Of a stretch of 64,000 nucleotides of DNA, positions 7,173-57,356 are shown piece by piece (positions within the stretch are counted from its first letter, which is position 1; each line of letters opens with the position of its first letter). The position numbers were made by a program, and so were the translations under genes. The stretch lies in NCBI GenBank assembly GCA_035516255.1, contig DATJAL010000018.1, positions 22,992 to 86,991 on the forward strand. The letters are read 5' to 3'. Origin of the DNA: Chitinivibrionales bacterium. Lineage in GTDB: Bacteria > Fibrobacterota > Chitinivibrionia > Chitinivibrionales > FEN-1185. The notes under the pieces were generated by a model, which saw only the letters and a program-made list of their open reading frames with translations, was not told the origin of the DNA and ran no database searches.

Positions 7173-7432
7173 GAAGCTGTTTAAAATGTGTAAAGGGAAG
7201 TCACCCTATTAAAGAAACGATAAATTAATTTGTGCTCTCCCCTAAAAGGAATTCAATACCTCGGATTTGCTTGTTAACCACAAGGATTACTACGTTTAAG
7301 AAAAACCTTTTGGTGTTTATTTTTATAAATTATTGAAAAAACGGCAGGTGAATTCATAAAAAATCCTGCTTTAACCTCATTTCGATAGTATTATATTCAT
7401 AGACCTTGTCAACAAGCCAAAGAGCTGCTGTC

Positions 7433-21645: not shown

Positions 21646-21953
21646 GTAGTAAGAAGGGGGCCTCTCGAAGATACGCTGCAATCGCTATTAAACCGCAGGT
21701 TTTATTATACCACCGAAAGGTCGTTTTGTCAAGAGCCGCATTTCTTTCGAATTGCGACAATCCACGATTTACGCAAGGGAAATCTATCAGCTTAATAGTC
21801 CTCAGATAGAGAAGCTAAACTGCGTTGCGACCACATTCCGTTTCGCTAATGTGACCGCAATCACAATACGTGGAAAAACAACAATGTATTTTTTTATCCA
21901 GACGAACTGTTATATTAAGAGTCTGTTCGTTCACTTTTTTAGGGGACTTTCAG

Positions 21954-24900
21954 ATGCGCACTATCAGGTCTTTATCGTTACTTGCCGTTTCTTTTGCCTC
22001 GCTTGTCTTCCTTACCTGCACCGGGCAAGAGAATCCGTTCAAGCCCTCCGATGCAACAGTGACGCCTGAACTTGAAAATTCTGCCGGACAGAGCGGAACC
22101 ACCATTTCCGACAGTGTCGGAAAGCCGGTGAAGATCATCCTTTTGGCCTATCTTCCCTCATATATCGATTCCGTGAAAGTGATTGTTGCCAACACAACCA
22201 CGGCCGACACCGATACGGTCCGTGTTTTTAACAAGGGCACGGTCTGGACCGATACACAGATTGTCAACATTATTTTCAGAACGGCGGGGACCCGTACCGT
22301 CACCATCATTGTTTTCGCGGGCGGCACCGAAAAAACGTCAACGGTCTCAATTGACATTGCGGCAAAACCGGTGCCCAACCATCGTCCGGCGCTGGTGGTC
22401 ACCGGCCTGCTCAATATCACCACCGCACAGACTTGCTCTTTGTCGCTTTCAGTGCGGGACTCCGACACGGGGCAGACGCACCTATTTACTCTTGTCAAGG
22501 GCCCGAAGGGTGCGACCTTCACCGACTCAATCTTCAGATGGACGCCGCCCGCAGGTTTTACCGGCACCGACTCGGCCGTGTTTTCCGTCACGGACAACGG
22601 CGCGCCGCCCCTGTCGGACACGGCGACCGAGTACATTACCGTGAGCGAGTCCCTGTCCCTTCAGATAACCGCTCCGCTGCCGGCGGCCACCAATGTTGCT
22701 CAGGGGGGAAGCACCGCCTTGACGGTCGCCGTGTCCGGCACCGCGCCGATTTCATACCAGTGGTATTATAATGGGGCGGCAATCGGCGGCGCGACCGGCA
22801 ATAGCTATTCAAAGACATGGGGGGCAAGTGATGGTGGGTACTATAAAATAGTGGTGAGCAACGCCAAGGGGAAGGACTCATCAACTACCCAGGTCACGGT
22901 TTGCCCTCGCATAACCGCGGGACTGGGGCCAAGCACCAGCATCGCGATAAACAGCGCCACGGCGCTTTCCGTGACCGCCGCCGGCACACCGCCAATGTCG
23001 TATCAATGGTACCGCAACGACACCGCTATTTCCGGCGCCACCACGGGCAGCTATTCCAAGACCTGGGCCGCAAGCGACGGCGGAGTTTACAAAGTGATAG
23101 TTTCCAACGGCGCAGGAAGCGACTCGTCGGAAACCGCGGTTACCATAAATTCCTCGATCACGACCCCGCTGCCCGGGATAACCGGCGTCAAACAGGGCAG
23201 CAGCTTCGCCCTGTCGGTTGTGGCGACGGGAACGCCGCCAATAACGTATCAATGGTACTACAATAACGTTGTCATCATCGGGGCGACAAGCGCTTCTTAT
23301 TCGAAAACCTGGGGGGCCGGAGACGGCGGAATATATAAGATCGTGGTGACCAACGGCATCGGCAAGGATTCTTCGTCCACCCAATTGATCGTTGCCCCGG
23401 TGATAACGAGTACGCTGGGCGCGACGACGAACATGTCGCAGGGCGGCAATACGGCTCTTTCAGTGTCCGCAACCGGAACCGCACCGTTGAGTTACCAGTG
23501 GTATCTCAACGATGTATCAATTTCCGGCGCGACCCTGAGTGCATACTCAAAAACGTGGGGGGCAACCGACGGCGGAGTTTACAAAGTGATAGTCGGCAAT
23601 GCGGCAGGAAGCGACTCTTCTCATACTACCCTGAATGTGGGGGTGGTGATTTCGCCGCGGCTCGGCGCGAAGACCAGTTTTAACCAGGGTTCGTCCGGCC
23701 AACTGAGCGTCACCGCGACGGGAACGGCGCCGATCACGTACCAATGGTATTTCAATGGAAATCAAATCTCTGGCGCCGCTTCAAGCTCCTACTCCAAAAC
23801 GTGGCAATATGCGGATTCGGGAACCTACAAGGTGATGGCCACGAATGCGGCGGGGACCGATACGTCAAGCACCGTGGTTGCGGTGAAGGATGTGACGCCG
23901 CCCGTGATTATCCTTAAAGGATCTCTGGACACCACAATCGCGATCGGCTCAACCTGGACCGAGCCTGGCGATTCCGCGTGGGATGACAGGGACGGGGTGA
24001 TTACGAACAAGATCAAGGTAACAGGAGGACCGGTTGCTGTATCCGCTTCGGGAAAATTCACACTGGCCTACAACGTTTCCGACACGGCAGGAAATGCGGC
24101 AACAGTAAAGATGAGAACGGTAAGGGTTGTGGGGTGGGAATTGGTGAATAATACCGGAATTACTATTAATAGTTATGATGGATTTGCAATGAAATTGGTG
24201 AACAATAACCTGTATATTGCCTATGTCGATAATAGTGATATCAAAACGTATGTGAAGAAACTCAATGGTAATAGCTGGGATTTAGTTGGCGGGGGGGCGG
24301 TCGACGCATTAGAGGCGAATATGGTGTCTCTGGCGGTTTCGTCAGATGGAACAACACCGTATATAGGGTATGTATCCACTCAAACCAATAAAGCGACAAT
24401 AGTCTCCAGGTTACAGGGCGGTACCTGGCAGACAATTTTTACATCCCAGTATGATTACACGTGGTCAAATTTCGCTGATGTGGAAATTTCTCCAACCGGG
24501 GGAATTTATTTGGTGAATGATCTCTCAAATAACAGCAACCCAGTTATTACTTCCCTGATGAAATACAATACGGTTAGCGGCCAAATGGTGCCGACAGATA
24601 CTCTAAGCGGCGGCATTTACCGAAATTACTATCAAACGGAAAAAGATTACCATGTCCTTGCTTTTGCTTCCGATGGAACCCCATATATTACATATCGCGG
24701 ACCAGGCGGATTCACCATAAAAAAGAAGCCGGGAACATCGTGGATTGGCGCCGGCGCAACCGCCGCGGACAGTATTTTCGATGTTGCTTACTCCGCACCG
24801 TTACAAACTGTCTTTTCAAACAATAACCTGTTTGTTCTGGTTTCAAGTGATGGTGCAAACCCGACCGTGTATAACCTGAAAGCCGGTAGTTGGACCAATC

Positions 24901-25187
24901 TCGGGACAATTACTTCCAGTGGGTCCGTGCAGCCGTGCTTAGCTGCCCTCGGAGATACGTGTTATGTTTCGTATGCCAGTTACCCGGACTATACTGGCGG
25001 TCCTGTTTATGTTAAAAAAATCGTTAATGGCTCCCTTAAAAATGTGCCTGAAGTAAGTCCTGATGGACTCGCTATCGCAGGCACTTTCAATTACTCCTGG
25101 GTTGAAGTTGGCAATGGAATCGTGTATGCTGCGGGAAGGGACCAAAGTTCCGGGGTAATTTCTTTGATGAAATACGTTAAGCAATAA
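21954..25187 (+). CDS. large exported adhesin-like protein: putative-Ig/cadherin-like region, 5 tandem Ig-like repeats, HYR/DUF5011-like Ig domain, AT-richer C-terminal repeat region
   Basis: ATG 21954 is preceded by AGGGGA and gives MRTIRSLSLLAVSFASLVFLTC (lipobox-like). The track start 21870 is less likely. Five repeats each contain (I/M/L)(S/T)YQWY. DVTPPVIILKG...WTEPG..AWDDRDG matches the Ig-like domain type seen in surface proteins. Confidence 0.8.
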   Translation: MRTIRSLSLLAVSFASLVFLTCTGQENPFKPSDATVTPELENSAGQSGTTISDSVGKPVKIILLAYLPSYIDSVKVIVANTTTADTDTVRVFNKGTVWTDTQIVNIIFRTAGTRTVTIIVFAGGTEKTSTVSIDIAAKPVPNHRPALVVTGLLNITTAQTCSLSLSVRDSDTGQTHLFTLVKGPKGATFTDSIFRWTPPAGFTGTDSAVFSVTDNGAPPLSDTATEYITVSESLSLQITAPLPAATNVAQGGSTALTVAVSGTAPISYQWYYNGAAIGGATGNSYSKTWGASDGGYYKIVVSNAKGKDSSTTQVTVCPRITAGLGPSTSIAINSATALSVTAAGTPPMSYQWYRNDTAISGATTGSYSKTWAASDGGVYKVIVSNGAGSDSSETAVTINSSITTPLPGITGVKQGSSFALSVVATGTPPITYQWYYNNVVIIGATSASYSKTWGAGDGGIYKIVVTNGIGKDSSSTQLIVAPVITSTLGATTNMSQGGNTALSVSATGTAPLSYQWYLNDVSISGATLSAYSKTWGATDGGVYKVIVGNAAGSDSSHTTLNVGVVISPRLGAKTSFNQGSSGQLSVTATGTAPITYQWYFNGNQISGAASSSYSKTWQYADSGTYKVMATNAAGTDTSSTVVAVKDVTPPVIILKGSLDTTIAIGSTWTEPGDSAWDDRDGVITNKIKVTGGPVAVSASGKFTLAYNVSDTAGNAATVKMRTVRVVGWELVNNTGITINSYDGFAMKLVNNNLYIAYVDNSDIKTYVKKLNGNSWDLVGGGAVDALEANMVSLAVSSDGTTPYIGYVSTQTNKATIVSRLQGGTWQTIFTSQYDYTWSNFADVEISPTGGIYLVNDLSNNSNPVITSLMKYNTVSGQMVPTDTLSGGIYRNYYQTEKDYHVLAFASDGTPYITYRGPGGFTIKKKPGTSWIGAGATAADSIFDVAYSAPLQTVFSNNNLFVLVSSDGANPTVYNLKAGSWTNLGTITSSGSVQPCLAALGDTCYVSYASYPDYTGGPVYVKKIVNGSLKNVPEVSPDGLAIAGTFNYSWVEVGNGIVYAAGRDQSSGVISLMKYVKQ
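22650..23890 (+). repeat. 5 tandem coding repeats, period ~246-249 bp (82-83 aa Ig-like units)
   Basis: The YQWY-encoding sites recur near 22757, 23005, 23251, 23497 and 23743. Stretches such as ggcggagtttacaaagtgatagt and gcaggaagcgactc are shared between units 2 and 4. Confidence 0.8.
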
Positions 25188-26477: not shown

Positions 26478-28019
26478 CTACCTGCTGAGTACCAACTCTC
26501 CGGACGTCACGGTCTTCTGTCCCTTGATCCTCACAATGTAATTGCCAGCTTGAACAAGGCTTCCAGAATTGGTCCTGCCGTCCCAGACGATGTGGTTGCT
26601 ACCCGGATTGACGGCAAGCTTGCAGACACTTCTTCCCATAACGTTGAAGACCTCGGCATGCTGCACGGTTTCTCCTTCAGAAAGATTTATCGAAGTGGTG
26701 ATAGACCTGATTCCGCTGCCGGAAACAGAGACTTGAACTATGCCTTGGCGGGAAAGATGCGGATTCTCCCTGACTTCAGTCGAAATTGGCCAAGTAGAGG
26801 CGTCAACAAGCCCTTTTCCGGCGCCGGTTTGCGCGGTCATAAGCGTGGTTATGTCCGCCGCCGTGTAGCCGTAGATGGTTACGAACTTATCAACTATGGC
26901 CGTATTCCATGCGGGATACGCACTACCCGAATGATATTTTTGATCCCTGATCTTAATTGTTGCAGCATGATCAACGGCGCCCGCAAAGGTACCCATCACA
27001 ATGGAACGCTGGTCAGCGCCATCGCTGACACTGCCGCTCCACTGCCCCGGGTCGCCCGCCCACATACAGTCCACTATGCAGAGCTGTGCTTTTGCAGGAT
27101 AGGAAGTGGGAATATTTCCAACGACGTAGTCGCAGGAGTTGACGTACATGAGCGCCCAAATCCCGAGATCGGCGGCAGGACTATCAGAGTTACTGGGATC
27201 TCCACCTGTGTGCCCGAAGTCGATTGTCTGCTTGTTATTCTTCTGGCACATCGTAACGCCGCTGTACTCCCAATAGCGGTCATGGCCCTTGTTAACGGCG
27301 CAGTTCACTAAGATGTCGACTCCGTTGATGCTTGATGTTCCAGAGGCGTTATTCAGATTGCCCGTGAAATTAGGAAGACCGGCCGGAAACTGCACTGTCA
27401 CGCCGCCCGTACCTCCCCCGAAAACAACGCCTGTCGGGATGGGTTTGCCTGCGCCGACATAAGTCGACTTGTTGAAAGGACCGGCGTTACCACCGTCATA
27501 AATACAGATGTTTGCCGGCAGCATACCCTTGCCGATAAGCACGTTGCATACTTTTGCCACAACGGCAACAGACGGAAAAAGACCGGAAAAAGTATTCACC
27601 TTTATCGCAGCTTTTGCCGTTGCCCACGTTTTACTGGACGGAATCTTGAAAATTGTGTTCCATGCGGTAGTAATGTCATGCGTATTTGCAAGCGCGCATG
27701 CCAGCTTGTCCATGTCTGTTGCGACGACTGAGTAATTCACCACCGCATCAGTTGTATTTGCGGCTGGACTGGGATTATTGAATCCATCCCACTGCGGCCA
27801 ATGGTGGTTGGCATTCATCACGGCTTGGTCCGTTATCCACGCGACGCGAAGATTGTCGATATCCTGATTGATCGGCGTCGTGCTGAGGTTCACTAGGGTG
27901 GTGTTGATAGGTGCCGCAGCGGCCTTTTTCGCGCCAGGTCCAATCATGGCCAAGCCGACCGCACTGGCAGCCGATGCCTTCAAGAAGTTTCTCCTACTTT
28001 CCAAGGTTTTCTTGCTCAT
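26478..28019 (-). CDS. Tat-signal DUF362-like protein with T9SS-type CTD
   Basis: Near-perfect twin-arginine motif (ESRRNFLKASAASAVGLA). Core AAIKVNTFSG...ILVNCAVNKGHD aligns with the DUF362 blocks of 31671-32576 (VLKANMG...LINVPTAKSHD) and 33262-34752 (IGIKVNTLGG...LINVPVLKDHA). C-terminal CTD: VFNVMGRSV...VWDGRTNSG...GNYIVRIKG...LVLSR. Confidence 0.8.
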   Translation of the reverse strand: MSKKTLESRRNFLKASAASAVGLAMIGPGAKKAAAAPINTTLVNLSTTPINQDIDNLRVAWITDQAVMNANHHWPQWDGFNNPSPAANTTDAVVNYSVVATDMDKLACALANTHDITTAWNTIFKIPSSKTWATAKAAIKVNTFSGLFPSVAVVAKVCNVLIGKGMLPANICIYDGGNAGPFNKSTYVGAGKPIPTGVVFGGGTGGVTVQFPAGLPNFTGNLNNASGTSSINGVDILVNCAVNKGHDRYWEYSGVTMCQKNNKQTIDFGHTGGDPSNSDSPAADLGIWALMYVNSCDYVVGNIPTSYPAKAQLCIVDCMWAGDPGQWSGSVSDGADQRSIVMGTFAGAVDHAATIKIRDQKYHSGSAYPAWNTAIVDKFVTIYGYTAADITTLMTAQTGAGKGLVDASTWPISTEVRENPHLSRQGIVQVSVSGSGIRSITTSINLSEGETVQHAEVFNVMGRSVCKLAVNPGSNHIVWDGRTNSGSLVQAGNYIVRIKGQKTVTSGELVLSR

Positions 28020-28065: not shown

Positions 28066-28656
28066 CTATTGCACTATTATCGAATGAAAGTAATTCATGA
28101 ATGCGCTGGCATCCGGTAACGCAAGACCGCTGGAAGTATACTTTGTAAATTGCATCTCAATATAAAAATTGCTGAAATGACCGTATGCGTAAATCGAAGA
28201 ACCATTATTTGTGTAAAACGCATCGGAAATTAAGTAGGGCGCCAAAGCGGATTCCGGTTCCCATGAACTGCCCTGCACCTTTCCGGCAAATATCGTCTGG
28301 GAATTTGCGGCGGTTCCATATTCAATTACTAGCATCTTGACACGCCCGGTATCCGTTGCTGACATGGCCTTGAACATGAACCTTTGAAATCCTTCTTTAA
28401 GAGTGCTGTTAAGGCATGTGCCGCAGTAGGTACTGCTACCGCCATCCACATAGTTGTAAATTGATGTGTCAACAAAATTGTCCATGCTGTCGGATACCCA
28501 CCCTGCTATTTGATTTGTTATAATAAGACTCGATAAAGGGACTGAGGTAGTTCCAGGCGAGGTCGGCCCGCACAGGGAGAAGTTAAGTCCTAAAAAGCAG
28601 GTTGTACCGAAAAGAGCCAGGAAAAGACCTTTTAATAACCTTCGTTTCATGAACAC
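28066..28656 (-). CDS. small lipoprotein, paralog family member A (unknown function)
   Basis: Signal/lipobox (LGLNFSLCG). Shares IAGWV...IYNYVDGGSSTY and the ending ...IIVQ with 28892-29482. Confidence 0.65.
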   Translation of the reverse strand: MFMKRRLLKGLFLALFGTTCFLGLNFSLCGPTSPGTTSVPLSSLIITNQIAGWVSDSMDNFVDTSIYNYVDGGSSTYCGTCLNSTLKEGFQRFMFKAMSATDTGRVKMLVIEYGTAANSQTIFAGKVQGSSWEPESALAPYLISDAFYTNNGSSIYAYGHFSNFYIEMQFTKYTSSGLALPDASAFMNYFHSIIVQ

Positions 28657-28891: not shown

Positions 28892-29482
28892 TTATTGGAC
28901 AATTGCCTTGTATGTATCCAAAAACTTCAAGGCCTCTGGAACAGCAATGGTGGAAATTTGAGAAACCGTAAAACCCATGACATAAAATTCAAAATATAAT
29001 GCGCCGAATGTGGCGTATACATGGATGCCTCCGCCGACCACTGATGCCTGTGCTTCATTATCGGAATATTGGCCAAGGGTGACCTTAGTTGTAATATTTA
29101 CCGCGACTTGTGCGTCATACAAGGCCTTGGCTTTTGCCGTTGTGCCATAGTTATGGACATATCCGTTGAATGCATAATCACCATTGAGCGGTGAAGCAGT
29201 TGGCCCCCCATTCATTTTTTCATGGAACCATGAGACAAGACCAGAGTCTTTATACACCTGGGCCGGGCCATCGATGTAGTTAAAGAGGCTTTCGGGAGGA
29301 TATTGGACAAAATGGCTACTCGAATCCGGGACCCAGCCTGATATTTGTGAAGTAAAATAAAGGTCTTGCAGCTTGGTCTGCGGATTTGTTCCTTTATCGC
29401 CGCAATTCCATACCAGAGCAACGCAGACAATAATAAATATTGTAATTCCGCCCCAATACTGGATTTTTCGAGAATTATTCAT
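28892..29482 (-). CDS. small lipoprotein, paralog family member B (unknown function)
   Basis: Lipobox-like ALVWNCG. ISGWV...LFNYIDGPAQVY. Same length (196 aa) and same C-terminal ..IVQ as member A. Confidence 0.65.
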   Translation of the reverse strand: MNNSRKIQYWGGITIFIIVCVALVWNCGDKGTNPQTKLQDLYFTSQISGWVPDSSSHFVQYPPESLFNYIDGPAQVYKDSGLVSWFHEKMNGGPTASPLNGDYAFNGYVHNYGTTAKAKALYDAQVAVNITTKVTLGQYSDNEAQASVVGGGIHVYATFGALYFEFYVMGFTVSQISTIAVPEALKFLDTYKAIVQ

Positions 29483-29670: not shown

Positions 29671-31383
29671 CTATTCAGTAAATCCCTTTGGCAGCTCTTC
29701 CCCGGAAGAAGGAATGGCGTTCTGCGGTTTGGGCGTGGCCTGGTTTTCCGAGCCGCGGGATTTGACCGTGCCTCCTGCCTCGCCGCCCGATCCCATGGTC
29801 TCGGCGCTGATCTGGTTTTCGGCGGCAGATTCCTTGATCTCCCGGAGGACTTTCCTTTTCTCCGTGATGTAAGAACCGTTCTTTTTTCTGTCTTCACCGA
29901 TTGAATACACTTCGATCGCGGCCCGGCCGTACACCGGGCAAGCTTTTTCGCAATATCCGCAGCCGATGCACTTGTCGTCCATCACGAACGGTCGCTTGAA
30001 CGGCCCCTTGAAATTGTCCACCACCATGGAGTCGATCGCATGGATGGGGCAGATTTCGGCGCAGATGAGGCAGAGCTTTTCCTGCTCCCACGCTATGCAG
30101 CGGTGGCGGTCGATCACGGCGGTGCCGAGCTTGACAAACTGTTTTTCGGGAAGGGGCAGGGCGCGGATGGCCTGCGTGGGGCACACGTGACCGCACATGT
30201 TGCATTTGTCCTCGCACGGGCCCTTGCGCGGCACCAGGTGCGGCGTCCACAGGCCGTCGAACCCGCATTCGAGGTCGGCGGGCTGGAGGCCGTTGGTCTT
30301 GCAGGTCTTCATGCATTCGCCGCAGCGAATGCAGCGCGCAAGGAACTCGTGTTCGGGCAGGGAGCCGGGCGGCCGGATGAAACGGCCGTTGATGTTGCGC
30401 GGGGCGTTGAGGCCGGCTTTTGCCGTGGCGGCCAGCACAAGGCCGGCGAACGCGGACTGGATGAACCCGCGGCGCTCGATGCTGAGCGAGGCGTTCCCCG
30501 TTCCGGCGCCGAATGAGGCAAACCCAACGGTAATGGCGTTTTTCTTGCATCCGTCAATGCAGTCGCCGCACAGCACGCATTCGGACAGCACGGTGTGCCG
30601 CGGGTTGAGGTCAACGGCGCGCATGTCGCATTTCGCGGCGCAGACCTTGCAATCAATGCACCGCTCATCGTTCACCTTGCGTTTGATGATGCCGAAACGG
30701 GAGAACAGCGATAGGAACGCACCCGTGGGGCACACGTACCTGCACCAGAAGCGCTTGCGCCAGAAATTCGCCGCAATGATCGCGGCAAGGAACACAAATG
30801 AGGCCACGCCTGTTGAGAAAAAATACCGGTGGAAACTGAACTGGGTAAAGGAGTCGAACCCCATGGCAAGCAGCATGGGGCGGACAAGATCAATCGCGCC
30901 GTTGAAGAGCCATATCATGGGAGGATACAGTACCAAGGCAAAGGACCGCGGCGCAATGGACATGGGGCTCAAGAAAGCGAGGAGGTTCGCGCCCAGCAGG
31001 GAGCTGAACAGGACGCCGATGAGGACGTAATATTTTATCCTCCGGTTGGGCTTGGGTTCAACGGACTCCTTTTTGTGTTTTTTTCCGTGAATGAGAAAAT
31101 CCGAAACGTCAATGAGGGTGCCAAGCGGGCACACGTAGCCGCAGAAAAACCTGCCCAACACGATGGTGAGAACGAGCAGCACCCCGGCCCACAGCATGGT
31201 GGCGATCACTGCGCGCGAACCGATCATGGCAACGGTCGCCACGAGCGGATCGAGCCGCAAAAAGGCGTCCACCGGAAATTTCGCGGCATAGGGGTACATG
31301 GTGAAAATAAACAGCAGAATGAAAATGCCGAAGAAAACGGCTTGCGTGACGCGGCGGAAGGTCGAGAGTTTCATGGATTTCAA
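29671..31383 (-). CDS. membrane polyferredoxin, NapH-like N-terminal half fused to NapG/MauM-like tetra-cluster half
   Basis: Hydrophobic helices carry two CX3CP motifs (CGYVCP, CRYVCP). Ferredoxin motifs: CIDCKVCAAKC, CVLCGDCIDGC. Internal ERRGFIQSAFAGLVLAATA, then CIRCGECMKTC, CEDKCNMCGHVCP, CLICAEICP, CIGCGYCEKACP. Low-complexity C-terminal tail. Confidence 0.85.
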   Translation of the reverse strand: MKSMKLSTFRRVTQAVFFGIFILLFIFTMYPYAAKFPVDAFLRLDPLVATVAMIGSRAVIATMLWAGVLLVLTIVLGRFFCGYVCPLGTLIDVSDFLIHGKKHKKESVEPKPNRRIKYYVLIGVLFSSLLGANLLAFLSPMSIAPRSFALVLYPPMIWLFNGAIDLVRPMLLAMGFDSFTQFSFHRYFFSTGVASFVFLAAIIAANFWRKRFWCRYVCPTGAFLSLFSRFGIIKRKVNDERCIDCKVCAAKCDMRAVDLNPRHTVLSECVLCGDCIDGCKKNAITVGFASFGAGTGNASLSIERRGFIQSAFAGLVLAATAKAGLNAPRNINGRFIRPPGSLPEHEFLARCIRCGECMKTCKTNGLQPADLECGFDGLWTPHLVPRKGPCEDKCNMCGHVCPTQAIRALPLPEKQFVKLGTAVIDRHRCIAWEQEKLCLICAEICPIHAIDSMVVDNFKGPFKRPFVMDDKCIGCGYCEKACPVYGRAAIEVYSIGEDRKKNGSYITEKRKVLREIKESAAENQISAETMGSGGEAGGTVKSRGSENQATPKPQNAIPSSGEELPKGFTE

Positions 31384-31585
31384 AACCTATTATTTGATGA
31401 ATAAAATGTAAAATGTGATTCTACGCTAAATTTTTATAATCTACAATCAAAGAAATCAATTCTCTCCCGGGAGCGTTGCGGGGTGGAACCCCCGCTGAGA
31501 GGGGTGCGGGTGCACTTGGCAAAAGACATAGCAACATGGTGCGAAGCACCGATACATTACCAAGGTGAATAAAAATGACAGATCA

Positions 31586-31615
31586 CCTCCCGCCTTTTTG
31601 TTTTTTGGCGGGAGG
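31586..31615 (-). terminator. hairpin between the DUF362 gene and the polyferredoxin gene
   Basis: CCTCCCGCC-(12 nt T-rich loop)-GGCGGGAGG, 9-bp perfect stem, 56 nt downstream of the 31671 stop. The U-rich stretch is not immediately adjacent. Confidence 0.4.
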
Positions 31616-31670
31616 AAGCTGCACCCCAGGGGAGATACTTTTCCCCACCAGGAAATTTTTATTTTTGAAT

Positions 31671-32576
31671 TTATACTATCTTCACGTCCATTTTTTCCAC
31701 GTCGATTTCGCCGAGACCCATGGCGTAGGCGTTCTTAATGTGCTTGACCTGGTTGCCCTTGAATTCCTTGTTGTACCAGCGTGCAATGCCCACGGTGTAG
31801 GAATCCGCGGCAACCGGGTCTGCGCTTGCCACTACCGTATTGAGCTCGTCGGTTTTTCCCGGGCCGCTCGGACCGTTGGTGACCAGCGCGTATACGGCGT
31901 TGACAATAGTTAACGTCGGCTTGATAACGAGCAAAAGGTCGGCAATGGCCTGGTTGAGCTCCACCTGCTCGTGCATGAACTGGCGGTCCCACACCAATCC
32001 CATGAGGTTTTTGATGCCCAGGCTCACGCCGGTTGCGTCATGCGATTTTGCCGTGGGAACGTTGATGAGGCAGTTCGCGCGCAGCACCTCCTTGGCAATG
32101 GCCGTGGTCTTGAGCTGCTTGCCGTTCGGAATGGGGGTGTCCTGGTAGAACTTCTGGTCTTCGAGAAGCGCCACCACCACGCCTTTGAGGCTTTCAACCG
32201 CTGCTCCGATGCCGCTTTTTTCCTTGCAGACTTTCCCGTCGCGCAGGGGATGGTCGATCACGATCACGCGCTGCGCTCCCGCGTCGAGGCAGAGCTGGGC
32301 GGTTGCCTTGACGATTTCCGGGTGCGTGGTAGTACCCCATTCGGGCGGGTTGGGGAAGCCCATGTTGGCCTTGAGCACCACGCGGTCGCCCAGTTTCACG
32401 AATTTCTTCATTCCGCCGAGCGCATCGACCGCTTTCTTCACCAGCTCTTCGGGCTTGCCCTTTGCAACCGCGACAAGCGGCTTTTTATTGTCTTGGGCCA
32501 GCACGGGAACAGACGCCAATGCGGCGCCCGCGGCTGCCGCGCTTCCTGTTTTGAGAAAATCTCTGCGCGATATCAC
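31671..32576 (-). CDS. Tat-signal DUF362 domain protein
   Basis: MISRRDFLKTGSAAAAGAALA (twin-arginine). DRVVLKANMGFPNPPEWGTTTHPEIV...RVIVIDH...CLINVPTAKSHDATGVSLGIKNLMG...ADPVAADSY is the canonical DUF362 layout. Confidence 0.85.
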   Translation of the reverse strand: MISRRDFLKTGSAAAAGAALASVPVLAQDNKKPLVAVAKGKPEELVKKAVDALGGMKKFVKLGDRVVLKANMGFPNPPEWGTTTHPEIVKATAQLCLDAGAQRVIVIDHPLRDGKVCKEKSGIGAAVESLKGVVVALLEDQKFYQDTPIPNGKQLKTTAIAKEVLRANCLINVPTAKSHDATGVSLGIKNLMGLVWDRQFMHEQVELNQAIADLLLVIKPTLTIVNAVYALVTNGPSGPGKTDELNTVVASADPVAADSYTVGIARWYNKEFKGNQVKHIKNAYAMGLGEIDVEKMDVKIV

Positions 32577-32707: not shown

Positions 32708-33265
32708 TCATTCGACTCCGATTTTCTTGTCAATGTTCCAGTAAAACTGCTTTGCCATGTTGAGCGCGAAGTCGGATTTCTCGGTGGTGGATATCCTGAG
32801 GAATATGCTCTGTTTGGCGTACTGGATGGTGTACGAGGTTGCCTGGGAAAGGTCCACCACGACGATGGGGTTCTTCGTGCTTATCAGATCGGGCGAGGTG
32901 GGGTAGAAGAAGTTGAAAAGGTCAAGCGCGTTTTGCTCGGTGCCCTGATTGAAAATCGCCACGTTGATGTCGATGCTGCCGTTGCTGTACAGCTGCACCA
33001 CGCCCTCCTGGAACCCGTAGGTGATGTAAGTCTGCGCCGCGCCGTCGATGGCGGCATAAATCGACTGCTCGTCGGTCATGGTGGAGACGCTGCCTTTCTT
33101 GACAAATCCGCTTATGTCGTTGTCGATGGGCAGATAGTCGGCCGGGTCGGCCCCTGCGCCGGGATCCTTGCTGATGCGGCATTGGGAGAGAAATATCAGT
33201 GGAAGCGCAATTATTGCGATACGGTAAACGGGAGATCTGAAACTTGTAAAGCCAAACGCGTTCAT
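32708..33265 (-). CDS. small lipoprotein, paralog family member C (divergent)
   Basis: Lipobox-like LIFLSQC. ISGFV...IYAAIDGAAQTY matches the family motif. The start overlaps the upstream stop (ATGA at 33262-33265). Confidence 0.6.
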   Translation of the reverse strand: MNAFGFTSFRSPVYRIAIIALPLIFLSQCRISKDPGAGADPADYLPIDNDISGFVKKGSVSTMTDEQSIYAAIDGAAQTYITYGFQEGVVQLYSNGSIDINVAIFNQGTEQNALDLFNFFYPTSPDLISTKNPIVVVDLSQATSYTIQYAKQSIFLRISTTEKSDFALNMAKQFYWNIDKKIGVE

Positions 33266-34752
33266 ACGAGGGAAACCTTCCCCGAAACGAAATTGGTGGA
33301 TCCAAGATTGTATTGAATGGCGGCATCCAAGATGTGCCGCGCATCGGACTGATTCGGGTTAGTGCTTTGCGTCCAGGAGATTTCCGGAAGGGTGGGCGCG
33401 TATTTGGCCCGTAATGCATTAATTGTTTTCAAAGCCCATGTATCTATCGCCACCGGATCAGTGCCTACGACAATAGAATTTGGTTGGCATGTGGGCGGCC
33501 CGTCTGGCCCTCCCGAAAAGCATCCCTGGAGCGCGTCTCCGACAATGAGAGCAAGCTTGGATGCGCCGGTTCTTGCATTCGGTATTGCTCTAACGGCTTG
33601 ATACAGGGCAGGGATCGACGGACTGCACATCGTGTCATGGAGCGTCGCCGGGCCGTTCCAAATGTCGGTAATGCCGTAAAGGTTCTTCATCGAGAATGAT
33701 ATTCCGGACTGCGCATGATCCTTGAGCACCGGAACGTTGATCAGAAAGTCAACGGCTTCGAATATGGCGGTTAGCCTTTTGTCTGTGCCGGCGATGTTGA
33801 CGGTGGATCCCCACAAAGCGGAACCCGGCTCCTGCTGACTTACAGGAACACCATCATTGAGCGTGGTGTTGAAGCTGGCCGACGCGATCCGGCTGGTTCC
33901 TTTCACGTTTCGCAAGGGAAACCCGGCCGCCGCCATCTGAGAGCCCGGAGCCCTGTCGTCGAAAATAATGATTTGGTACGCCGGGAACGTTCCGCCAAGC
34001 ATTGCTGTCAAACTGCTTACGATGGCGGTTACAACCTCTGGCCTCGTACTCACATTTGACCCGCCGAGGGTGTTGACTTTGATTCCTATAAGCGAAGATG
34101 CAGTCAACCCCGGGAACAGCGATTCCCACGCGGCCGTTGCGACCGCCGGATCCTGGGTGCTTCCCGAGGGAATTGCGCCGTTGTCAATCTGCATCTGTGC
34201 GACCGCCGCGTCAATCATCGACTTCAACAGGGTCGCCTGAATATTCGGTTTTCCAATGGTGCCCGTGTTGACGGTGGCATTGGTGACAGGATACACATGC
34301 GACGGCTTCTGAATTGGAACAAGCAGACGATCGGACGGCGGGCTTTGGTTTCCCATCTGGCCATTTGGCCCGGTAACGGGACTGGAGTCGACTGCCCTCA
34401 CTGTGTAAGCGCAGGTACTGCCTACGGCAAACCCACTGGCATCCACGAAACCCGGATTGGTTACCTGTGCAAGCAGGGTGTCGTCGCGGTACACATCATA
34501 CGCACGGATTCCAGTCCACAACTTTGCTCCCGTAACATCGGTAAGGGGCCTGTCCCAGGTGATCATGACCGAATCGACGGCTCCGGAATCGCTTGTGGCC
34601 AAGTTGTAAGACAAACCTGTCGGCGCGGCCGGCAGCCGGATATCCGGCTCAACGACTGTTCGCTTATCGCAGCTTGCGAGAACGCCTATTCCTGCTGCTG
34701 CCTCAAGCGAATTGATCAGGAACTTCCTTCGGTTGATTTTCTTTGCATTCAT
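33262..34752 (-). CDS. Tat-signal lipoprotein with FN3-like module and DUF362-like domain
   Basis: INRRKFLINSLEAAAGIGVLASC (RR motif plus lipobox). The FN3-like stretch is PTGLSYNL...ITWDRP...YDVYRDD...YTVRAVDS. DUF362 blocks: IGIKVNTLGG, LINVPVLKDHAQSGISFSMKNLYG, TDPVAIDTW. Confidence 0.8.
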   Translation of the reverse strand: MNAKKINRRKFLINSLEAAAGIGVLASCDKRTVVEPDIRLPAAPTGLSYNLATSDSGAVDSVMITWDRPLTDVTGAKLWTGIRAYDVYRDDTLLAQVTNPGFVDASGFAVGSTCAYTVRAVDSSPVTGPNGQMGNQSPPSDRLLVPIQKPSHVYPVTNATVNTGTIGKPNIQATLLKSMIDAAVAQMQIDNGAIPSGSTQDPAVATAAWESLFPGLTASSLIGIKVNTLGGSNVSTRPEVVTAIVSSLTAMLGGTFPAYQIIIFDDRAPGSQMAAAGFPLRNVKGTSRIASASFNTTLNDGVPVSQQEPGSALWGSTVNIAGTDKRLTAIFEAVDFLINVPVLKDHAQSGISFSMKNLYGITDIWNGPATLHDTMCSPSIPALYQAVRAIPNARTGASKLALIVGDALQGCFSGGPDGPPTCQPNSIVVGTDPVAIDTWALKTINALRAKYAPTLPEISWTQSTNPNQSDARHILDAAIQYNLGSTNFVSGKVSLV

Positions 34753-34889: not shown

Positions 34890-37800
34890 TTAGAAGAGCG
34901 CCGTTGCCTTCAGCTCGGCCATGTTATAATTCAATACCTTCTGGTCGAACAAATAGTCCACTTCCAACAGCAAACGTAAGAAGAAATTAGCCCCTGCCTT
35001 CACCTGTATGTCGAGCTTGTTCTGCCATGCCTTGTCATAGCTCCTGAATGAATAATTCGCCCCGTTTGAAAGCATGGCTCCTATATAATATTGAGTTCGC
35101 CATTCCCTGATTACTTTTCCCTGAATGCGCCAGTCGAACAGGATCCCTGGTGTGATGGTGTTGAGATAGCCGGTCACGGTGTCCCTGGTGATATTGGTGC
35201 CAAGGTTGGTGAATGTGGAGTCCAGGTTCTGCCAGAGGATGTCCACCGTGGATTCAGTCCTAAGGTTCGGCACCCACCGTTCGGTCCACTTTATTCTGAA
35301 TTCATCCTGGTAGTTCTTGAGCGCAAACGTGTCGAGCTTTTGCGTGTAATCCGGCATATGTAAGTTGTCGAAAAACATGTTGAAATCGATGTCGAACCTG
35401 GTTTTCCTTTCTCTAAAGGCAAGACGCGCCTCGTTGTACCATTTGAGGCCGTCGTCGGTTGCGAGGGTGAAATTCGTTGAGTTCGTTTTCTCCAGCCTGC
35501 TGTCGAAATGAAGGTCTTGTGAAAAATCAAATATAGGCTTAATAGAGTAAGTTTGATTTAATGTATTCGTTCTTGTTTCGATTGTATCGGGTATTAACTC
35601 CAGGGAATCCCCGTTGGAAAATCCATATCCCAGGTTGAGCTGAAACGGGTTGAGAAACGTCAGGTAGACCCCGGGAACAAGAAGCAGGCTTCCATTTACC
35701 AGGTTCGCGGTTGTTGTTATCCGATCATCCGATGCAATGACGTTTTCCGAGGTTTGCAGCTGGTAATCGCCGTACAGGGTGATACCGGGGATCAGTTCCT
35801 GGGAAAAAAGTTTGAATTCGGGCCGCAATGTGTTCCCTCTATAGTCCATTGCCCCGTTAAGACTATCGCGGCCCTGAAAGATCCTGAAAACGCTCTTGGT
35901 TTCGAGCTGCAATTTTTTAAGGGGAGAAAACCTGATCCAGGCAAAAATATTATGGTCGAGCTTCTGATCGAACCGCGACTGCAGGTCGTAGGTGCCGGGT
36001 GCCGCGCCGGGGACAATGTTCGTGTCAACCGAATCGGTGAGGAGGTTGACGGAATACGAAGCGTCGAGCCATATCCTGTCGAGCACCTTGAAGGTGCGGC
36101 CCCATTCGGTCTCGATGATGCCGTTCCACCGGTCGGACCTCAGGGAATCGCGGTCGCCGCCGGGCAGGGAATCGCGCGTCAGGCGGGTGTAGTTTCTCAT
36201 GTCCTGATGCATGCCGAACAGCCTGAGCGACGGGATGTCCGGCGGCGAGATGAGATACTGCGCATACTCCCTTACCTCGCTGCCGCACGAGGCGTCGGTC
36301 ATATTCGCTCCCACCGTGATGGGCATGTACTGTTTCCAAACGTCCCAAACCAATTCGCCCTGCTCCTGGTGGTTGATCCTTCCGTACACCGAATTCTGGT
36401 CGGCGAGGGTGACGTAGTCGGGCGTCTCGTACATTCCCGAGGCCTTGAGCTTGAGGTTGTGGGCCACGGAGTACAGGTCGAGTTTCGCCGCGGTCCCCTG
36501 TTTTGTCACGAGAATGGAATCGTTGTAGCTCCCCGACACCTCGGGCACGGCCCTAAGATACAGTTTGCTGTCGGCGGATTTCATCTCTATCTTGCTGTTC
36601 ACGCTGCCGGCAAAGTCGCGGTTGTAAACGCTGTCGAGGCCGTTGCGGCTGGGCTCCTTGAACCCCCGGTACGCGCCGTTGACGCCCAGCGCGACCTTGT
36701 CGCTCAGCTCCACGACATTTTCGGCCGCGGCCATCTGGTTGGTGTATACCCCGATGGTGGGCTGGTACTGGCACGAGACCTCGATGCGGGAGTCGGGGTT
36801 GGCCAGCCCCTCGTTCTTGAACGTGAGCAGGCCCATGGTCCGCTCGATGCTGTAGTCGCTCGGGTCGACGAGCTGTCCGTCAACCAGGATCTGCACGCTC
36901 TCGGTGACGATGTTCTCCACGCCGAGCTCGTAGAAGTTGTCTTCACGGAAGGGAATGAGCTTCCTGAAATACTCGGCCTTGCCGAAGCCCGCCCACAGGC
37001 CGGTGTTGACGCGGCGCAGCTTCTTGTCGCCCACGCGGTCGCCGAACTCCGCGCGGACGCCCGCGCCCTCGAGGTAGGTGGGGTTAATGAGCGAGCTGTA
37101 GAAATAGTCGGTCTTCTGGTCGGTGCGCCAGCCGATCCTGCGCAGGTTGTCGTCGCCGAACCCGCGGTATTCGGCGCCGTAACGCAGGTCGCCGAGCGGG
37201 TCGGTGTTGTCGTAGGTGGCGCGCAGCGTGCGGCCGTTGTTCAGGTCGGCGTTGAGGTTGAGGTTGGCCTTTGCCCATCCGTACAAAAAGTCCTTGTAGG
37301 TCGCCACGGTGTCGACGGGCGCGCGCGTGATGGCGCCGCCCGCGGCCGTGTCGTAGGCGTACACGACGGAGTCGAGGTTCTTGTTTGTCAAATAGTTGCC
37401 GATGCTCGTGGCGAGCGGCGCGGGAAACTCGGCCTTGTTTTCGACCTTGTATTCGGCGGTGCCGCGGAGGTTCAGGCTCTGGCCGCCCGGCGCCTCAACG
37501 CCGAGCCCGGTCTCGTCCATGTGCCCCTTCCACTTGGGCTTCTGCCCGCCGCCGGCCACCTTGATCTGGGTGGCGTACCAGAGGTCCTGGTCGGTTTTCA
37601 AATAGGAGAACGTGGTGCCCTTTCTGCACAGCGTGGTCTGGCCCGAGGTGTACACCTCGTCCTGTACGTCGTCGCTGAGGCCGTCCACCGACGTGTAGGT
37701 TTTCCAGAGCCGCTTGTCCTCGTCGAACGAATACACGCCGTCGGACGTGGCAAACCATTCGGTGGTCCCGGAGGTGGAGAGCGAATACACCGTTTTCTTC

Positions 37801-38609
37801 TCGATGGGCATGTTGCGCGAGAAGTTTTCCCAGGTCTGGTTCTTGCCGTTGAACCGCGCCACGCCCTCGGGCGACATCACCCAGATGTACGACGCGTCGA
37901 CGAGCATGTAGTTGACCGCCGAACCCACGATGCCGTTGTTGAGCGGGTAGGAGTTCCATGCCTTCATGGCGATGGAGTAGCGCGAGAAGCCCTTGTCGGT
38001 CTCGGCCCAGATGTAGTCGCTGAAGCTGAAAAGCCTGAACACCGTGTTCGAGATGAGCCCGGTGCCCGCGGTGTAGCTTTCCCATTTCTCGAATTTCTTG
38101 TCAAAGTAGAATACGCCCTGGTCGGTGGCCACCCACAACTGGGCCTGGTTGGAGTATAGGTCGTAGATGCGCTTGCCCGCAAAATCCCCCATGGGCTCCC
38201 ACTGCATCACCAGCTTGTTGAACCGAGCCAGGCCGTGCGGGCCCGCCGCGTACACGTAGTCGAGGTCGGCCACGAGCCTTACCACGGTGTCGGACGGCAT
38301 GCCCTGCTTTGCCGAATAGGGTTTCCAATCGAGGTACCGCATGTCGGCGTAGAGCGCGCCGCGGTTGGTGCCCACCCACAGTTCCTTGTCGTCAAGGCAC
38401 AGGTCGTTCACGGCCTCGGGCCTGATGTTGCCCCATGCCTCGTTTTCGGTCTGGAACCGTTGCAGGCCGAAGTCGGTGCCCCACCATACCGAGTTATCAT
38501 ACTGGAAAAACAGTTGGCGCGGCGGGGGAGTGGCGGCGAAGAGGCCGCACAACATGCCCGCACCCGTGATCAAAAGGATTTTTTTTATGACCGCTGATGA
38601 ATAAGACAT
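34890..38609 (-). CDS. very large envelope protein: N-terminal propeller repeats + long probable outer-membrane beta-barrel
   Basis: ATG 38609 gives the signal-like MSYSSAVIKKILLITGAGMLCGLFAA; the track start is 38693. There are five blades of the type LWVGTNRGALYAD / LWVATDQGVFYFD / IWAETDKGFSRYS / IWVMSPEGVARFN / EWFATSDGVYSFD. About 850 aa of Y/G/N/D/T-rich alternating sequence then end in ...ELKATALF (C-terminal Phe, as in OM barrels). Confidence 0.7.
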   Translation of the reverse strand: MSYSSAVIKKILLITGAGMLCGLFAATPPPRQLFFQYDNSVWWGTDFGLQRFQTENEAWGNIRPEAVNDLCLDDKELWVGTNRGALYADMRYLDWKPYSAKQGMPSDTVVRLVADLDYVYAAGPHGLARFNKLVMQWEPMGDFAGKRIYDLYSNQAQLWVATDQGVFYFDKKFEKWESYTAGTGLISNTVFRLFSFSDYIWAETDKGFSRYSIAMKAWNSYPLNNGIVGSAVNYMLVDASYIWVMSPEGVARFNGKNQTWENFSRNMPIEKKTVYSLSTSGTTEWFATSDGVYSFDEDKRLWKTYTSVDGLSDDVQDEVYTSGQTTLCRKGTTFSYLKTDQDLWYATQIKVAGGGQKPKWKGHMDETGLGVEAPGGQSLNLRGTAEYKVENKAEFPAPLATSIGNYLTNKNLDSVVYAYDTAAGGAITRAPVDTVATYKDFLYGWAKANLNLNADLNNGRTLRATYDNTDPLGDLRYGAEYRGFGDDNLRRIGWRTDQKTDYFYSSLINPTYLEGAGVRAEFGDRVGDKKLRRVNTGLWAGFGKAEYFRKLIPFREDNFYELGVENIVTESVQILVDGQLVDPSDYSIERTMGLLTFKNEGLANPDSRIEVSCQYQPTIGVYTNQMAAAENVVELSDKVALGVNGAYRGFKEPSRNGLDSVYNRDFAGSVNSKIEMKSADSKLYLRAVPEVSGSYNDSILVTKQGTAAKLDLYSVAHNLKLKASGMYETPDYVTLADQNSVYGRINHQEQGELVWDVWKQYMPITVGANMTDASCGSEVREYAQYLISPPDIPSLRLFGMHQDMRNYTRLTRDSLPGGDRDSLRSDRWNGIIETEWGRTFKVLDRIWLDASYSVNLLTDSVDTNIVPGAAPGTYDLQSRFDQKLDHNIFAWIRFSPLKKLQLETKSVFRIFQGRDSLNGAMDYRGNTLRPEFKLFSQELIPGITLYGDYQLQTSENVIASDDRITTTANLVNGSLLLVPGVYLTFLNPFQLNLGYGFSNGDSLELIPDTIETRTNTLNQTYSIKPIFDFSQDLHFDSRLEKTNSTNFTLATDDGLKWYNEARLAFRERKTRFDIDFNMFFDNLHMPDYTQKLDTFALKNYQDEFRIKWTERWVPNLRTESTVDILWQNLDSTFTNLGTNITRDTVTGYLNTITPGILFDWRIQGKVIREWRTQYYIGAMLSNGANYSFRSYDKAWQNKLDIQVKAGANFFLRLLLEVDYLFDQKVLNYNMAELKATALF

Positions 38610-38802
38610 GGATTTCCGGACTGACAAAGATGGTTTAACCGGCGAACGTAAAAACAAAAATGAGCCAAAACCGGTTAAATGGGATCTTTTCACTGCGCGC
38701 GTTCAACAAACTCAGTTCGGTGTACGGGGGGCATAACCGGAACCATCAAACGGCAAATAAAATATATGAAAATACGGGGGGGTTCAATATAGTTGTCTAA
38801 AA

Positions 38803-54946: not shown

Positions 54947-54974
54947 GGCTTCTCCCCCGAAAGGCGTGAAATTC

Positions 54975-56504: not shown

Positions 56505-56519
56505 TGTTGAGCTCCCCTA

Positions 56520-57356
56520 TTATCTGTAAACGGCTATTTTTTTCTGATACATTTGTCCAGTGGCGTCAATCTTTACCAGATAGACGCCGTTGGTGACGCT
56601 CCGATTAAAAAGGTCCTTATAATTCCAGAATGCTTCGACGGACCCGGAGCAGCGGCAGACGAGTTGGCCTGAAGGGGAGAGAATCTCCGCCGAAAGAGGT
56701 CGCGCCTGCATTCTGCCAAACGAGATGCGCGCACCGGACCTGGCGCAGGTCACGCTGAGCCCGTCGTCGACACGCCGCATTTCGGATTTTGGCCGAACAG
56801 CGGTGATGGCATTTCCGTACACTTCAAATTCATATATCGAAATTCCCCAGCCCGGGTTCCAGAGCCGTTTATAAGAATGCATGCGGACGTACCTGGTTTC
56901 ACGGGGCGGCAGTTTCAAGAAACTGAGGCACCGCTGCACGGCGTCGGTATAGGTGAGCGTGGTGTCGATCAGCAGCGTTGTCCATCCCGTGTCGTTGTTC
57001 GAGGGAAGCGCAATGGTTGAGTCCCACTCCTGAATCGCGTATTTCCCTGAGCCGGAATGCTCCCAGTAGATTGCCACGGAGTCGACCAGATACCGTGTTC
57101 CCAGATCCACGTAAATCCAAGCGTTGCCTTTCATGGAGTCCGGCCTTCCGTCAATGTAGTTGTTCTCCCACCGGGATTCTCCGGAGTTTATTCCGTCAAC
57201 CGCCATGGCCGGCGTGCGCGCTCCCACGTAGCTGTCGGCGATTGCGGTCTTGTCCAAGGCGAGATTGGTTCGGGGCGCCGAAAAAATATTGGCGGAAAAT
57301 GCGGAGATAAAAATGCTGGAGAATAAAAGAATTGAAATGATGGCAAACCTATTCAT
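56520..57356 (-). CDS. T9SS cargo: single discoidin domain + CTD (paralog)
   Basis: NLALDKTAIADS...AVDGINSGESRWENN...WIYVDLGTRYLVDSVAIYWEHSGSGKYAIQEW. The CTD ends QKKIAVYR. Confidence 0.8.
   Translation of the reverse strand: MNRFAIISILLFSSIFISAFSANIFSAPRTNLALDKTAIADSYVGARTPAMAVDGINSGESRWENNYIDGRPDSMKGNAWIYVDLGTRYLVDSVAIYWEHSGSGKYAIQEWDSTIALPSNNDTGWTTLLIDTTLTYTDAVQRCLSFLKLPPRETRYVRMHSYKRLWNPGWGISIYEFEVYGNAITAVRPKSEMRRVDDGLSVTCARSGARISFGRMQARPLSAEILSPSGQLVCRCSGSVEAFWNYKDLFNRSVTNGVYLVKIDATGQMYQKKIAVYR

Follow-up and report, generated by a model that had tools for sequence, protein, structure and literature searches.

The locus described here raises the question of how a twin-arginine motif comes to lie in the middle of a single predicted polytopic iron-sulfur protein, and whether it is still an export signal. 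The locus is situated in a 64,000-nucleotide stretch (the window) of contig DATJAL010000018.1 (positions 22,992 to 86,991, forward strand; assembly GCA_035516255.1), which belongs to a metagenome-assembled genome (MAG) of a Chitinivibrionales bacterium (Fibrobacterota). The gene in question (29671..31383, minus strand; 570 aa when read from a TTG codon) specifies a polytopic polyferredoxin (PFD) in which a NapH-like half is fused to a NapG-like half. A first-pass annotation, made from the sequence alone, had considered the motif to be the relic of a former twin-arginine translocation (Tat) signal, and had viewed the insertion of iron-sulfur (Fe-S) clusters into a periplasmic module without Tat export as an open problem. 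That interpretation is partly supported, in that the architecture and the topology hold, whereas the relic and the open problem do not. The best overall explanation, in which we place considerable confidence, is that the gene encodes a PFD whose biogenesis involves both Sec and Tat and which is the probable electron wire of an uncharacterized periplasmic oxidoreductase module. Its biogenesis is probably as proposed on the strength of its sequence and of experiments performed on a homolog, while its function is probably that suggested by its gene context.

Architecture of the PFD

The probable start codon of the PFD gene is an ATG at position 31374, since close homologs, which are 567 aa long, begin with MKLSTFRR at the equivalent of residue 4; use of this codon likewise yields a product of 567 aa. 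The N-terminal module (30514..31383, minus strand, as are all segments of this gene; residues 1 to 290) was delineated by hydropathy, motif scanning, NCBIfam matches, and an AlphaFold2 (AF2) model with predicted local distance difference test (pLDDT) values of 70 to 86. It displays the features expected of NapH, namely four transmembrane (TM) helices as judged by hydropathy (TM1, 12 to 30; TM2, 58 to 76; TM3, 120 to 138; TM4, 187 to 205), two CX3CP motifs (CGYVCP at 81 to 86 and CRYVCP at 214 to 219) and two C-terminal CxxCxxCxxxC motifs (242 to 252 and 269 to 279), the latter representing a 2x[4Fe-4S] ferredoxin domain that is assigned to the cytoplasm.

This module is followed by the internal twin-arginine signal-anchor (30409..30483; residues 301 to 325), where ERRGFIQSAFAGLVLAATAKA (residues 303 to 323) spans the twin-arginine segment, with RR304-305 at nucleotides 30469..30474 and TM5 at residues 307 to 325. 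The positively charged stretch behind TM5, NAPRNINGRFIRPPG (30364..30408), contains three K/R and no acidic residues and ends in an invariant RPPG (337 to 340). The NapG/MauM-like domain (29914..30363; residues 341 to 490), which is predicted to be periplasmic, harbors motifs for four [4Fe-4S] clusters at 351 to 361, 390 to 402, (429)438 to 446, and 472 to 483, the cluster cysteines being 351/354/357/361, 390/394/397/401, 429/438/441/445, and 472/475/478/482. A low-complexity tail of approximately 80 aa (29674..29913; residues 491 to 570) completes the protein and closes with P-x-G-F (565 to 568; nucleotides 29680..29691). Each item of the motif inventory listed in the first-pass annotation (two CX3CP motifs, two CxxCxxCxxxC motifs, the RR segment, four later clusters, and the low-complexity tail) was located by motif scan. 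In an alignment of 26 homologs with 40 to 85% identity, 28 cysteines (seven sets of four) are invariant, 12 of them before and 16 after TM5, as are R304, R305, and RPPG. The motif set of the PFD is far beyond chance.

The assignment of the two halves, which the first-pass annotation had also proposed, is corroborated by Pfam and NCBIfam matches to each of them. Pfam reported Fer4_5, the NapH-type motif, together with several 4Fe-4S dicluster models. The best NCBIfam match of the N-terminal half was NapH/MauN (TIGR02163, E=9.5e-32), followed by NapH (E=2.8e-30), while residues 301 to 520 returned NapG (E=2.3e-29; model positions 8 to 233 of 254) and MauM/NapG (TIGR00397, E=1.4e-25) as their best matches. 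The NapG match begins within the Tat-signal region of that model, and the succession typical of NapG/MauM proteins, a twin-arginine signal and then four 4Fe-4S motifs, is present in the window protein with the signal in an internal position.

Relationship to a published polytopic polyferredoxin

A protein of the same design, Q1NSB0 of the delta proteobacterium MLMS-1, has been described as a "polytopic polyferredoxin" by Tooke et al. (2017, eLife 6:e26577, PMC5449189), who explicitly called it a NapH-NapG fusion. Its five TM domains are combined with seven predicted 4Fe-4S clusters, of which three are cytoplasmic and four are extracellular; TM1 to TM4 are inserted by Sec, and TM5 is inserted by Tat, which also exports the domain behind it (PMC5449189). 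Fusions to maltose-binding protein (MBP), AmiA, and Bla, combined with substitution of the twin arginine, demonstrated for Q1NSB0 reporters in E. coli that translocation after TM domain 5 (TMD5) is Tat dependent, and the handover from Sec to Tat requires both a low hydrophobicity of TMD5 and positive charges behind it (PMC5449189).

BLASTP alignment of the window PFD with the N-terminal 364 aa of Q1NSB0 (residues 1 to 364, as given in the supplement of PMC5449189, to which the comparison applies) revealed 30% identity over 320 aa (E=5e-28). The two are collinear, with window residues 36 to 318 corresponding to Q1NSB0 residues 41 to 354, and their twin-arginine motifs are matched, ERRGFIQSAFAGLV of the window protein standing opposite GRRRLLGAAAAGLV of Q1NSB0. 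The likeness extends to the five TM helices, the three cytoplasmic and four extracytoplasmic cluster sites, the RR directly before a weakly hydrophobic TM5, and the positive charges after it. The two proteins differ in that the window protein is derived from another phylum (a Chitinivibrionales MAG) and belongs to a subclade with a long low-complexity tail ending in PxGF. Given this collinear homology, the RR before TM5, the hydrophobicity and charge pattern of TM5, and the cysteines of seven clusters, the window protein is, as judged by sequence, a member of the PFD family and the single-chain equivalent of the NapH/NapG pair. The fusion architecture and the role of the internal signal have been known since 2017; what the window protein adds is a Fibrobacterota/Chitinivibrionales member.

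The same fusion architecture, for which a database search had been suggested in the first-pass annotation, is widespread. In a homolog search of 5.8 billion proteins, 8,000 candidates were scored and more than 5,500 of them matched at E<=1e-10; the best 120 matches are all full-length fusions of 510 to 592 aa. Named sources of the matches include Chitinivibrionales, Fibrobacterota, Eisenbacteria, KSB3, Syntrophaceae, and Deltaproteobacteria. A locus scan employing one genome per species yielded 80 PFD loci (labeled within the range L001 to L089), which include representatives of Thermodesulfobacteriota, NC10, Acidobacteriota, Verrucomicrobiia, Bacteroidota, Aminicenantes, Clostridia, and Geobacteraceae.

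Conservation of the internal twin-arginine signal

When RR was sought within the 50 aa upstream of RPPG, it was found in 119 of 120 close homologs, and it is present in 68 of the 69 distant full-length fusions (approximately 30 to 40% identity) recovered by the genome scan; the single exception in either set has KR. The motif consensus, [DN]-φ-S-R-R-G-F-[ILV]-x-S, matches the S-R-R-x-F core of Tat signals, and the distance between RR and RPPG is constant at 30 to 34 residues. A relic would be expected to drift, yet conservation down to 30% identity covers the RR, its flanking residues S and F, and its spacing to RPPG, which argues that the segment is no relic. On this sequence evidence it is a conserved, functional-looking internal Tat signal-anchor, contrary to the designation as a relic, and the supposed problem of inserting Fe-S clusters without Tat export does not arise, given that export of the homologous Q1NSB0 domain is both Tat and RR dependent (PMC5449189).

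The physical properties of TM5 set it apart from the preceding helices. Insertion free energies (dG), estimated as a simple position-independent Hessa-scale sum over the best 19-mer of each helix and thus approximate, unlike those of the dGpred server used by the authors of the Q1NSB0 study, were -0.3, -2.9, -0.3, +0.5, and +5.4 for TM1 to TM5 of the window protein. The corresponding means across 26 homologs were +0.5, -0.7, -1.3, +0.1, and +5.3 (standard deviation of 0.9 for TM5), and in the same homologs the net charge of the 15 aa behind TM5 averages +2.7. In the window protein the N terminus (4), loop 2 (9), and the loop 4/ferredoxin region (17) are rich in K/R residues, a positive-inside bias consistent with an N-in orientation in which the CX3CP motifs and the first ferredoxin domain face the cytoplasm. 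AF2, supplied with a 26-sequence alignment, modeled a continuous 22-residue helix from 304 to 325 with a pLDDT of approximately 84. Together with the alignment to Q1NSB0 and the experiments reported for that protein, hydropathy, charge, and the AF2 helix make it most likely that, as the first-pass annotation had suggested, the RR and hydrophobic stretch form a TM helix which places the four-cluster module outside the cytoplasm.

Conservation is more restricted at the C-terminal end. PxGF, which lies at the very end of the protein behind a variable linker of approximately 70 aa, is found among the final 14 aa in 112 of the 120 close homologs and in just 11 of the 69 distant ones, and acidobacterial PFDs terminate in a different conserved tail (...SQILL...). 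The notion of PxGF as a family-wide motif was consequently refuted, the motif being confined to a subclade at approximately 40% identity or more. By way of speculation, PxGF may represent a docking peptide.

Conserved genomic neighbors of the PFD

In the window, the gene preceding that of the PFD encodes a 301-aa DUF362 protein with a Tat signal (31671..32576, minus strand; Pfam DUF362, E=8.5e-48, and TAT_signal), and this is a conserved neighbor. A Chitinivibrionales MAG encodes a protein with 100% identity to it, which identifies the organism of origin. A hidden Markov model (HMM) built from four DUF362 neighbors and applied to the 80 genome loci identified a same-strand DUF362 gene beside the PFD gene in 67 of them, spanning many phyla. 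Of these loci, 50 have the DUF362 gene directly upstream of the PFD gene and 17 have it just downstream, the latter belonging mostly to Acidobacteriota and often containing two copies. Among the DUF362 open reading frames (ORFs) of these loci, 83 of 91 open with an RRxF[LI]K-type signal. In one contig of Syntrophaceae and one genome of Eisenbacteria, the DUF362 gene overlaps the PFD start. The association is reciprocal in all three cases that were checked, as the DUF362 orthologs of "Ca. Vecturithrix," a 6.5-Mb contig in an ENA assembly, and Raymondbacteria directly precede a PFD gene specifying 552 to 562 aa; DUF6599 is encoded immediately upstream in one of these three loci and nearby upstream in another.

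DUF6599-like genes were detected by a simple phmmer search in at least 29 loci, while the other neighbors of the PFD-DUF362 pair vary between genomes, which suggests that the module is self-contained. In two genomes, DUF6599 is fused to the C terminus of the PFD, where it stands in place of the low-complexity tail: "Ca. Anammoxibacter" (locus L030, 1907..4414; 835 aa) and a Bryobacteraceae MAG (locus L026, 5830..7929; 699 aa). These gene fusions link DUF6599 to the periplasmic end of the PFD. In the available portion of the article by Tooke et al., the physiological function of the PFD lies outside its scope and the linkage to DUF362 and DUF6599 is not mentioned (PMC5449189). A literature search returned no functional study of DUF362 and no mention of DUF6599, and the conserved linkage of the PFD with a Tat-exported DUF362 protein, and in part with DUF6599, appears to be new.

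The DUF362 partner

The AF2 model of the 301-aa DUF362 protein is confident (pLDDT of 91), and its top 19 Foldseek matches in the PDB, which comprise all significant matches, are LarA or LarA-like nickel-pincer-nucleotide enzymes, the best having an E value of 5e-8, a probability of 1.0, and a query TM-score (TMq) of approximately 0.46. The protein is thus predicted, from this model, to adopt a LarA-like fold. The placement of DUF362 and DUF2088/LarA_N in the same Pfam clan, CL0471 (PMC11770544), agrees with the Foldseek result. Sequence and profile searches of DUF362 against the PDB returned no LarA match. K177, H179, K189, and H202 are invariant in the DUF362 alignment; a possible correspondence of such residues to the cofactor ligands of LarA is offered as a lead only. 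The scanned ORFs of the window included no lar gene (larB, larC, or larE). DUF362 is reported to be common in proteins with Fe-S domains and is also fused to carbohydrate-binding module 9 (CBM9) and dockerin modules (PMC5742341). The Tat signal of the partner protein implies that a cofactor or its fold is acquired in the cytoplasm.

Proposed biogenesis and function

Based on the behavior of its homolog, Sec would insert TM1 to TM4 of the window PFD cotranslationally, leaving the two CX3CP motifs and the 2x[4Fe-4S] ferredoxin domain in the cytoplasm in the N-in topology that its sequence predicts. TM5 would escape Sec, being too weakly hydrophobic and followed by too many positive charges, so that the NapG-like domain would fold and acquire its four [4Fe-4S] clusters in the cytoplasm. 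The Tat translocase, as demonstrated for the homolog, would then recognize the internal S-R-R-x-F and export the folded, cluster-loaded domain, with TM5 left as a signal-anchor. The predicted product is a chain of seven clusters, three inside and four outside, which, as judged from gene context, would connect the electron pool of the membrane or cytoplasm with partners in the periplasm. Its inner donor may be a quinol, the donor suggested for NapH, or else a reductant of the cytoplasm, and its periplasmic four-cluster domain would donate electrons to, or accept them from, the Tat-exported DUF362 enzyme, with DUF6599 as a putative accessory or docking protein.

A more far-reaching proposal, to which we give slightly less credence than doubt, is that the PFD, the LarA-fold DUF362 protein, and DUF6599 form a self-contained and widespread periplasmic redox module, the wire feeding or draining a cofactor-bearing DUF362 enzyme with new chemistry. 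At this Chitinivibrionales locus the module would have grown to comprise two DUF362 proteins, three lipoproteins, and a surface protein with Tat and type IX secretion system (T9SS) signals, and might reach the cell surface; the PxGF motif would serve for docking and would be replaced in some genomes by the fused DUF6599.

The export step admits other explanations, which differ in the fate they assign to TM5. Signal peptidase I might cleave the internal Tat signal after export, which would leave the NapH-like part as a membrane subunit and release the NapG-like part as a separate, soluble subunit into the periplasm, the fusion being merely a means of translational coupling. The sequence A-K-A|G at residues 321 to 324, at the end of the hydrophobic stretch, would suit such an event, as would the fact that the Tat signal of canonical NapG is cleavable and that the NapG HMM aligns from model position 8, inside that signal. 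A suitably placed A-x-A is, however, present in just 34 of 120 homologs, so that cleavage is no conserved feature, and TM5 is a membrane anchor in the published family model (PMC5449189); we consider cleavage distinctly unlikely.

If, instead, residues 307 to 325 did not span the membrane, neither ferredoxin half would leave the cytoplasm, and the protein would amount to a cytoplasmic polyferredoxin tethered to the membrane. The weak hydrophobicity of TM5 (Kyte-Doolittle [KD] value of 1.41; simple dG of about +5) is consistent with this, and TM predictors are known to be confused by Fe-S regions (PMC5449189), but low hydrophobicity is also what is expected of a Tat-dependent TM helix. Moreover, the RR within its Tat-like motif is nearly universal, export of MBP and AmiA reporters by the homologous Q1NSB0 segment depended on both Tat and the RR (PMC5449189), and the conserved partners bear Tat signals and are therefore periplasmic, all of which renders a nonspanning segment very unlikely. 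The relic explanation, whereby Sec or YidC would insert TM5 as an ordinary helix and the periplasmic clusters would be gained by another route, draws on the internal position of the signal and nothing beyond. It is at odds with the conservation of the RR, its flanking residues, and its spacing to RPPG, with the Sec-avoidance features of TM5, and with the confirmation, through twin-arginine substitution in the homolog, that export is Tat dependent (PMC5449189), and it is accordingly regarded as extremely unlikely. The preferred explanation remains that of an intact protein anchored by TM5 following Tat export.

A number of observations weigh against this explanation or its extension to DUF362. 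The topology of the window protein is a prediction that draws on homology, hydropathy, and the distribution of charges; dG was estimated by a crude sum that ignores position and falls short of a full predictor; and the NapG-like half of the AF2 model is of low confidence (pLDDT below 50), for which reason this part of the model was discarded for fold searching and for judging sidedness. The NapH scores lie under the curated cut-offs (NF007013 [equivalog], 105.4 versus 234 bits; TIGR02163 [subfamily], 110.5 versus 213), as do the NapG/MauM scores (NF007012, 102.3 versus 269 bits; TIGR00397, 90.2 versus 178.85), which indicates that the halves are NapH-like and NapG-like rather than orthologs, and that quinol dehydrogenase activity is not transferable by orthology. 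An adjacent DUF362 gene is lacking in 13 of the 80 loci, 4 of which are truncated contigs. Finally, the DUF362 and PFD genes of the window are separated by a gap of 296 bp (31375..31670) with a weak terminator-like hairpin (31594..31577), which makes their cotranscription in this genome uncertain; the gap is 87 bp in the relative represented by locus L005, and the genes overlap in other phyla.

Comparison with other known systems

The window PFD resembles NapGH of E. coli and Wolinella succinogenes in that the best NCBIfam matches of its two halves are NapH-like and NapG-like, respectively. It differs in being one polypeptide instead of two, its NapG-like domain being fused to the NapH-like module where NapG is a separate soluble polypeptide, and in having DUF362, not a molybdoenzyme, as its conserved partner. 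Neither nap, mau, or nos genes in general nor napA, napB, napC, or a molybdopterin oxidoreductase gene in particular were found among the scanned predicted proteins of the window, and the PFD, as judged by its gene context, is no part of nitrate respiration. With MauM/MauN it shares the TIGRFAM subfamilies TIGR02163 and TIGR00397, from which it is distinguished by scores below the cut-offs, by the fusion of the halves, and by the lack of a mau gene context. Searching the PFD profile against the PDB retrieved generic polyferredoxins only (e.g., MvhB and FwdF), with no NapH or NapG structure among the matches.

NapH-like cores have been viewed as modular conduits that serve a range of enzymes outside the cytoplasm (Meheust et al. 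2021, PMC8238504). The PFD shares both the NapH-like membrane core (Fer4_5, PF12801) and the notion of a modular transmembrane conduit with NosR, NirI, and PceC (PMC8238504). Those proteins carry an N-terminal, periplasmic, flavinylated flavin mononucleotide (FMN)-binding domain, whereas the window PFD, in which Pfam detected no FMN_bind match, carries a C-terminal, Tat-exported NapG-like domain with four clusters; the NosR model of NCBIfam matched residues 197 to 275 only (E=4.8e-10). By analogy, the PFD would be a NapG-fused version of the NapH-like conduit, serving DUF362. In terms of biogenesis it is comparable to the actinobacterial Rieske protein Sco2149 and the heme-molybdenum cofactor (MoCo) protein Sco3746, which likewise combine Sec-inserted N-terminal helices, a Tat-dependent last helix after an RR, and an exported cofactor domain (PMC5449189), their folds and cofactors being unrelated to those of the window PFD.

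As an internal-Tat fusion, the window protein is a textbook-style example of a biogenesis problem that has been solved. Its useful yield is the functional context, a concrete three-gene target present across Fibrobacterota, Thermodesulfobacteriota, Acidobacteriota, NC10, KSB3, and others, and working out the PFD-DUF362-DUF6599 module might bring to light a redox activity that is common in the periplasm of anaerobes.

The gene cluster and its surroundings in the window

The PFD gene is part of a same-strand cluster (minus strand) whose products, in order of transcription, are a 1267-aa protein, a 496-aa DUF362 protein, a 185-aa DUF6599-like protein, the 301-aa DUF362 protein, the PFD, two 196-aa lipoproteins, and a 513-aa protein. 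Scans of the cluster for consensus promoters and terminators performed no better than on shuffled sequences. The 1267-aa protein (34890..38693), for which Pfam returned only a weak propeller-repeat match, ends in ...ATALF, a terminal Phe being typical of outer-membrane beta-barrels; its gene is retained upstream of the DUF362 genes in loci L005 and L006. The 496-aa protein (33262..34752) is a second DUF362 protein (Pfam, E=9.4e-22) with a Tat signal and lipobox (RRKFL...LASC).

The DUF6599-like lipoprotein of 185 aa (32708..33265) was assigned through a Pfam DUF6599 match (E=1.7e-4) that is below the cut-off, and its homologs adjoin PFD/DUF362 genes in other phyla. Inspection of its sequence by eye gave no Cys or His that would point to a redox cofactor. 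The two 196-aa lipoproteins (28892..29482 and 28066..28656) had no Pfam matches; they are paralogous to each other (BLASTP, E=1.4e-13), distantly similar to the 185-aa protein (1.6e-4 and 0.03), and both conserved in loci L005 and L006. All three small proteins carry a lipoprotein-type signal.

The last gene of the cluster (26478..28019) encodes the 513-aa protein, which pairs an N-terminal Tat signal with a C-terminal sorting domain of the T9SS, the two matches being weak and around the curated cut-offs; the protein is conserved in locus L005. T9SS cargo is generally described as Sec dependent, and the combination of Tat and T9SS signals looks unusual. A possible DUF362 identity of this protein, raised by a weak match of the seed HMM to its homolog, was rejected, as hhalign matched the Tat signal only.

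The flanking regions encode enzymes of tryptophan biosynthesis, valyl-tRNA synthetase (ValRS), and many surface proteins. The sole Pfam match of a 940-aa protein (48818..51640, minus strand) is the middle domain of the hydrazine synthase alpha subunit (PF18582, E=1.3e-17). Three F5/8 type C (NedA-like galactose-binding) paralogs, a 1105-aa multi-Ig protein, and a PKD-repeat protein make up a run of surface proteins (53447..57356, minus strand; 21870..25187, plus strand; 7406..10402, plus strand), which fits a T9SS-using, polysaccharide-degrading organism of the Fibrobacterota.

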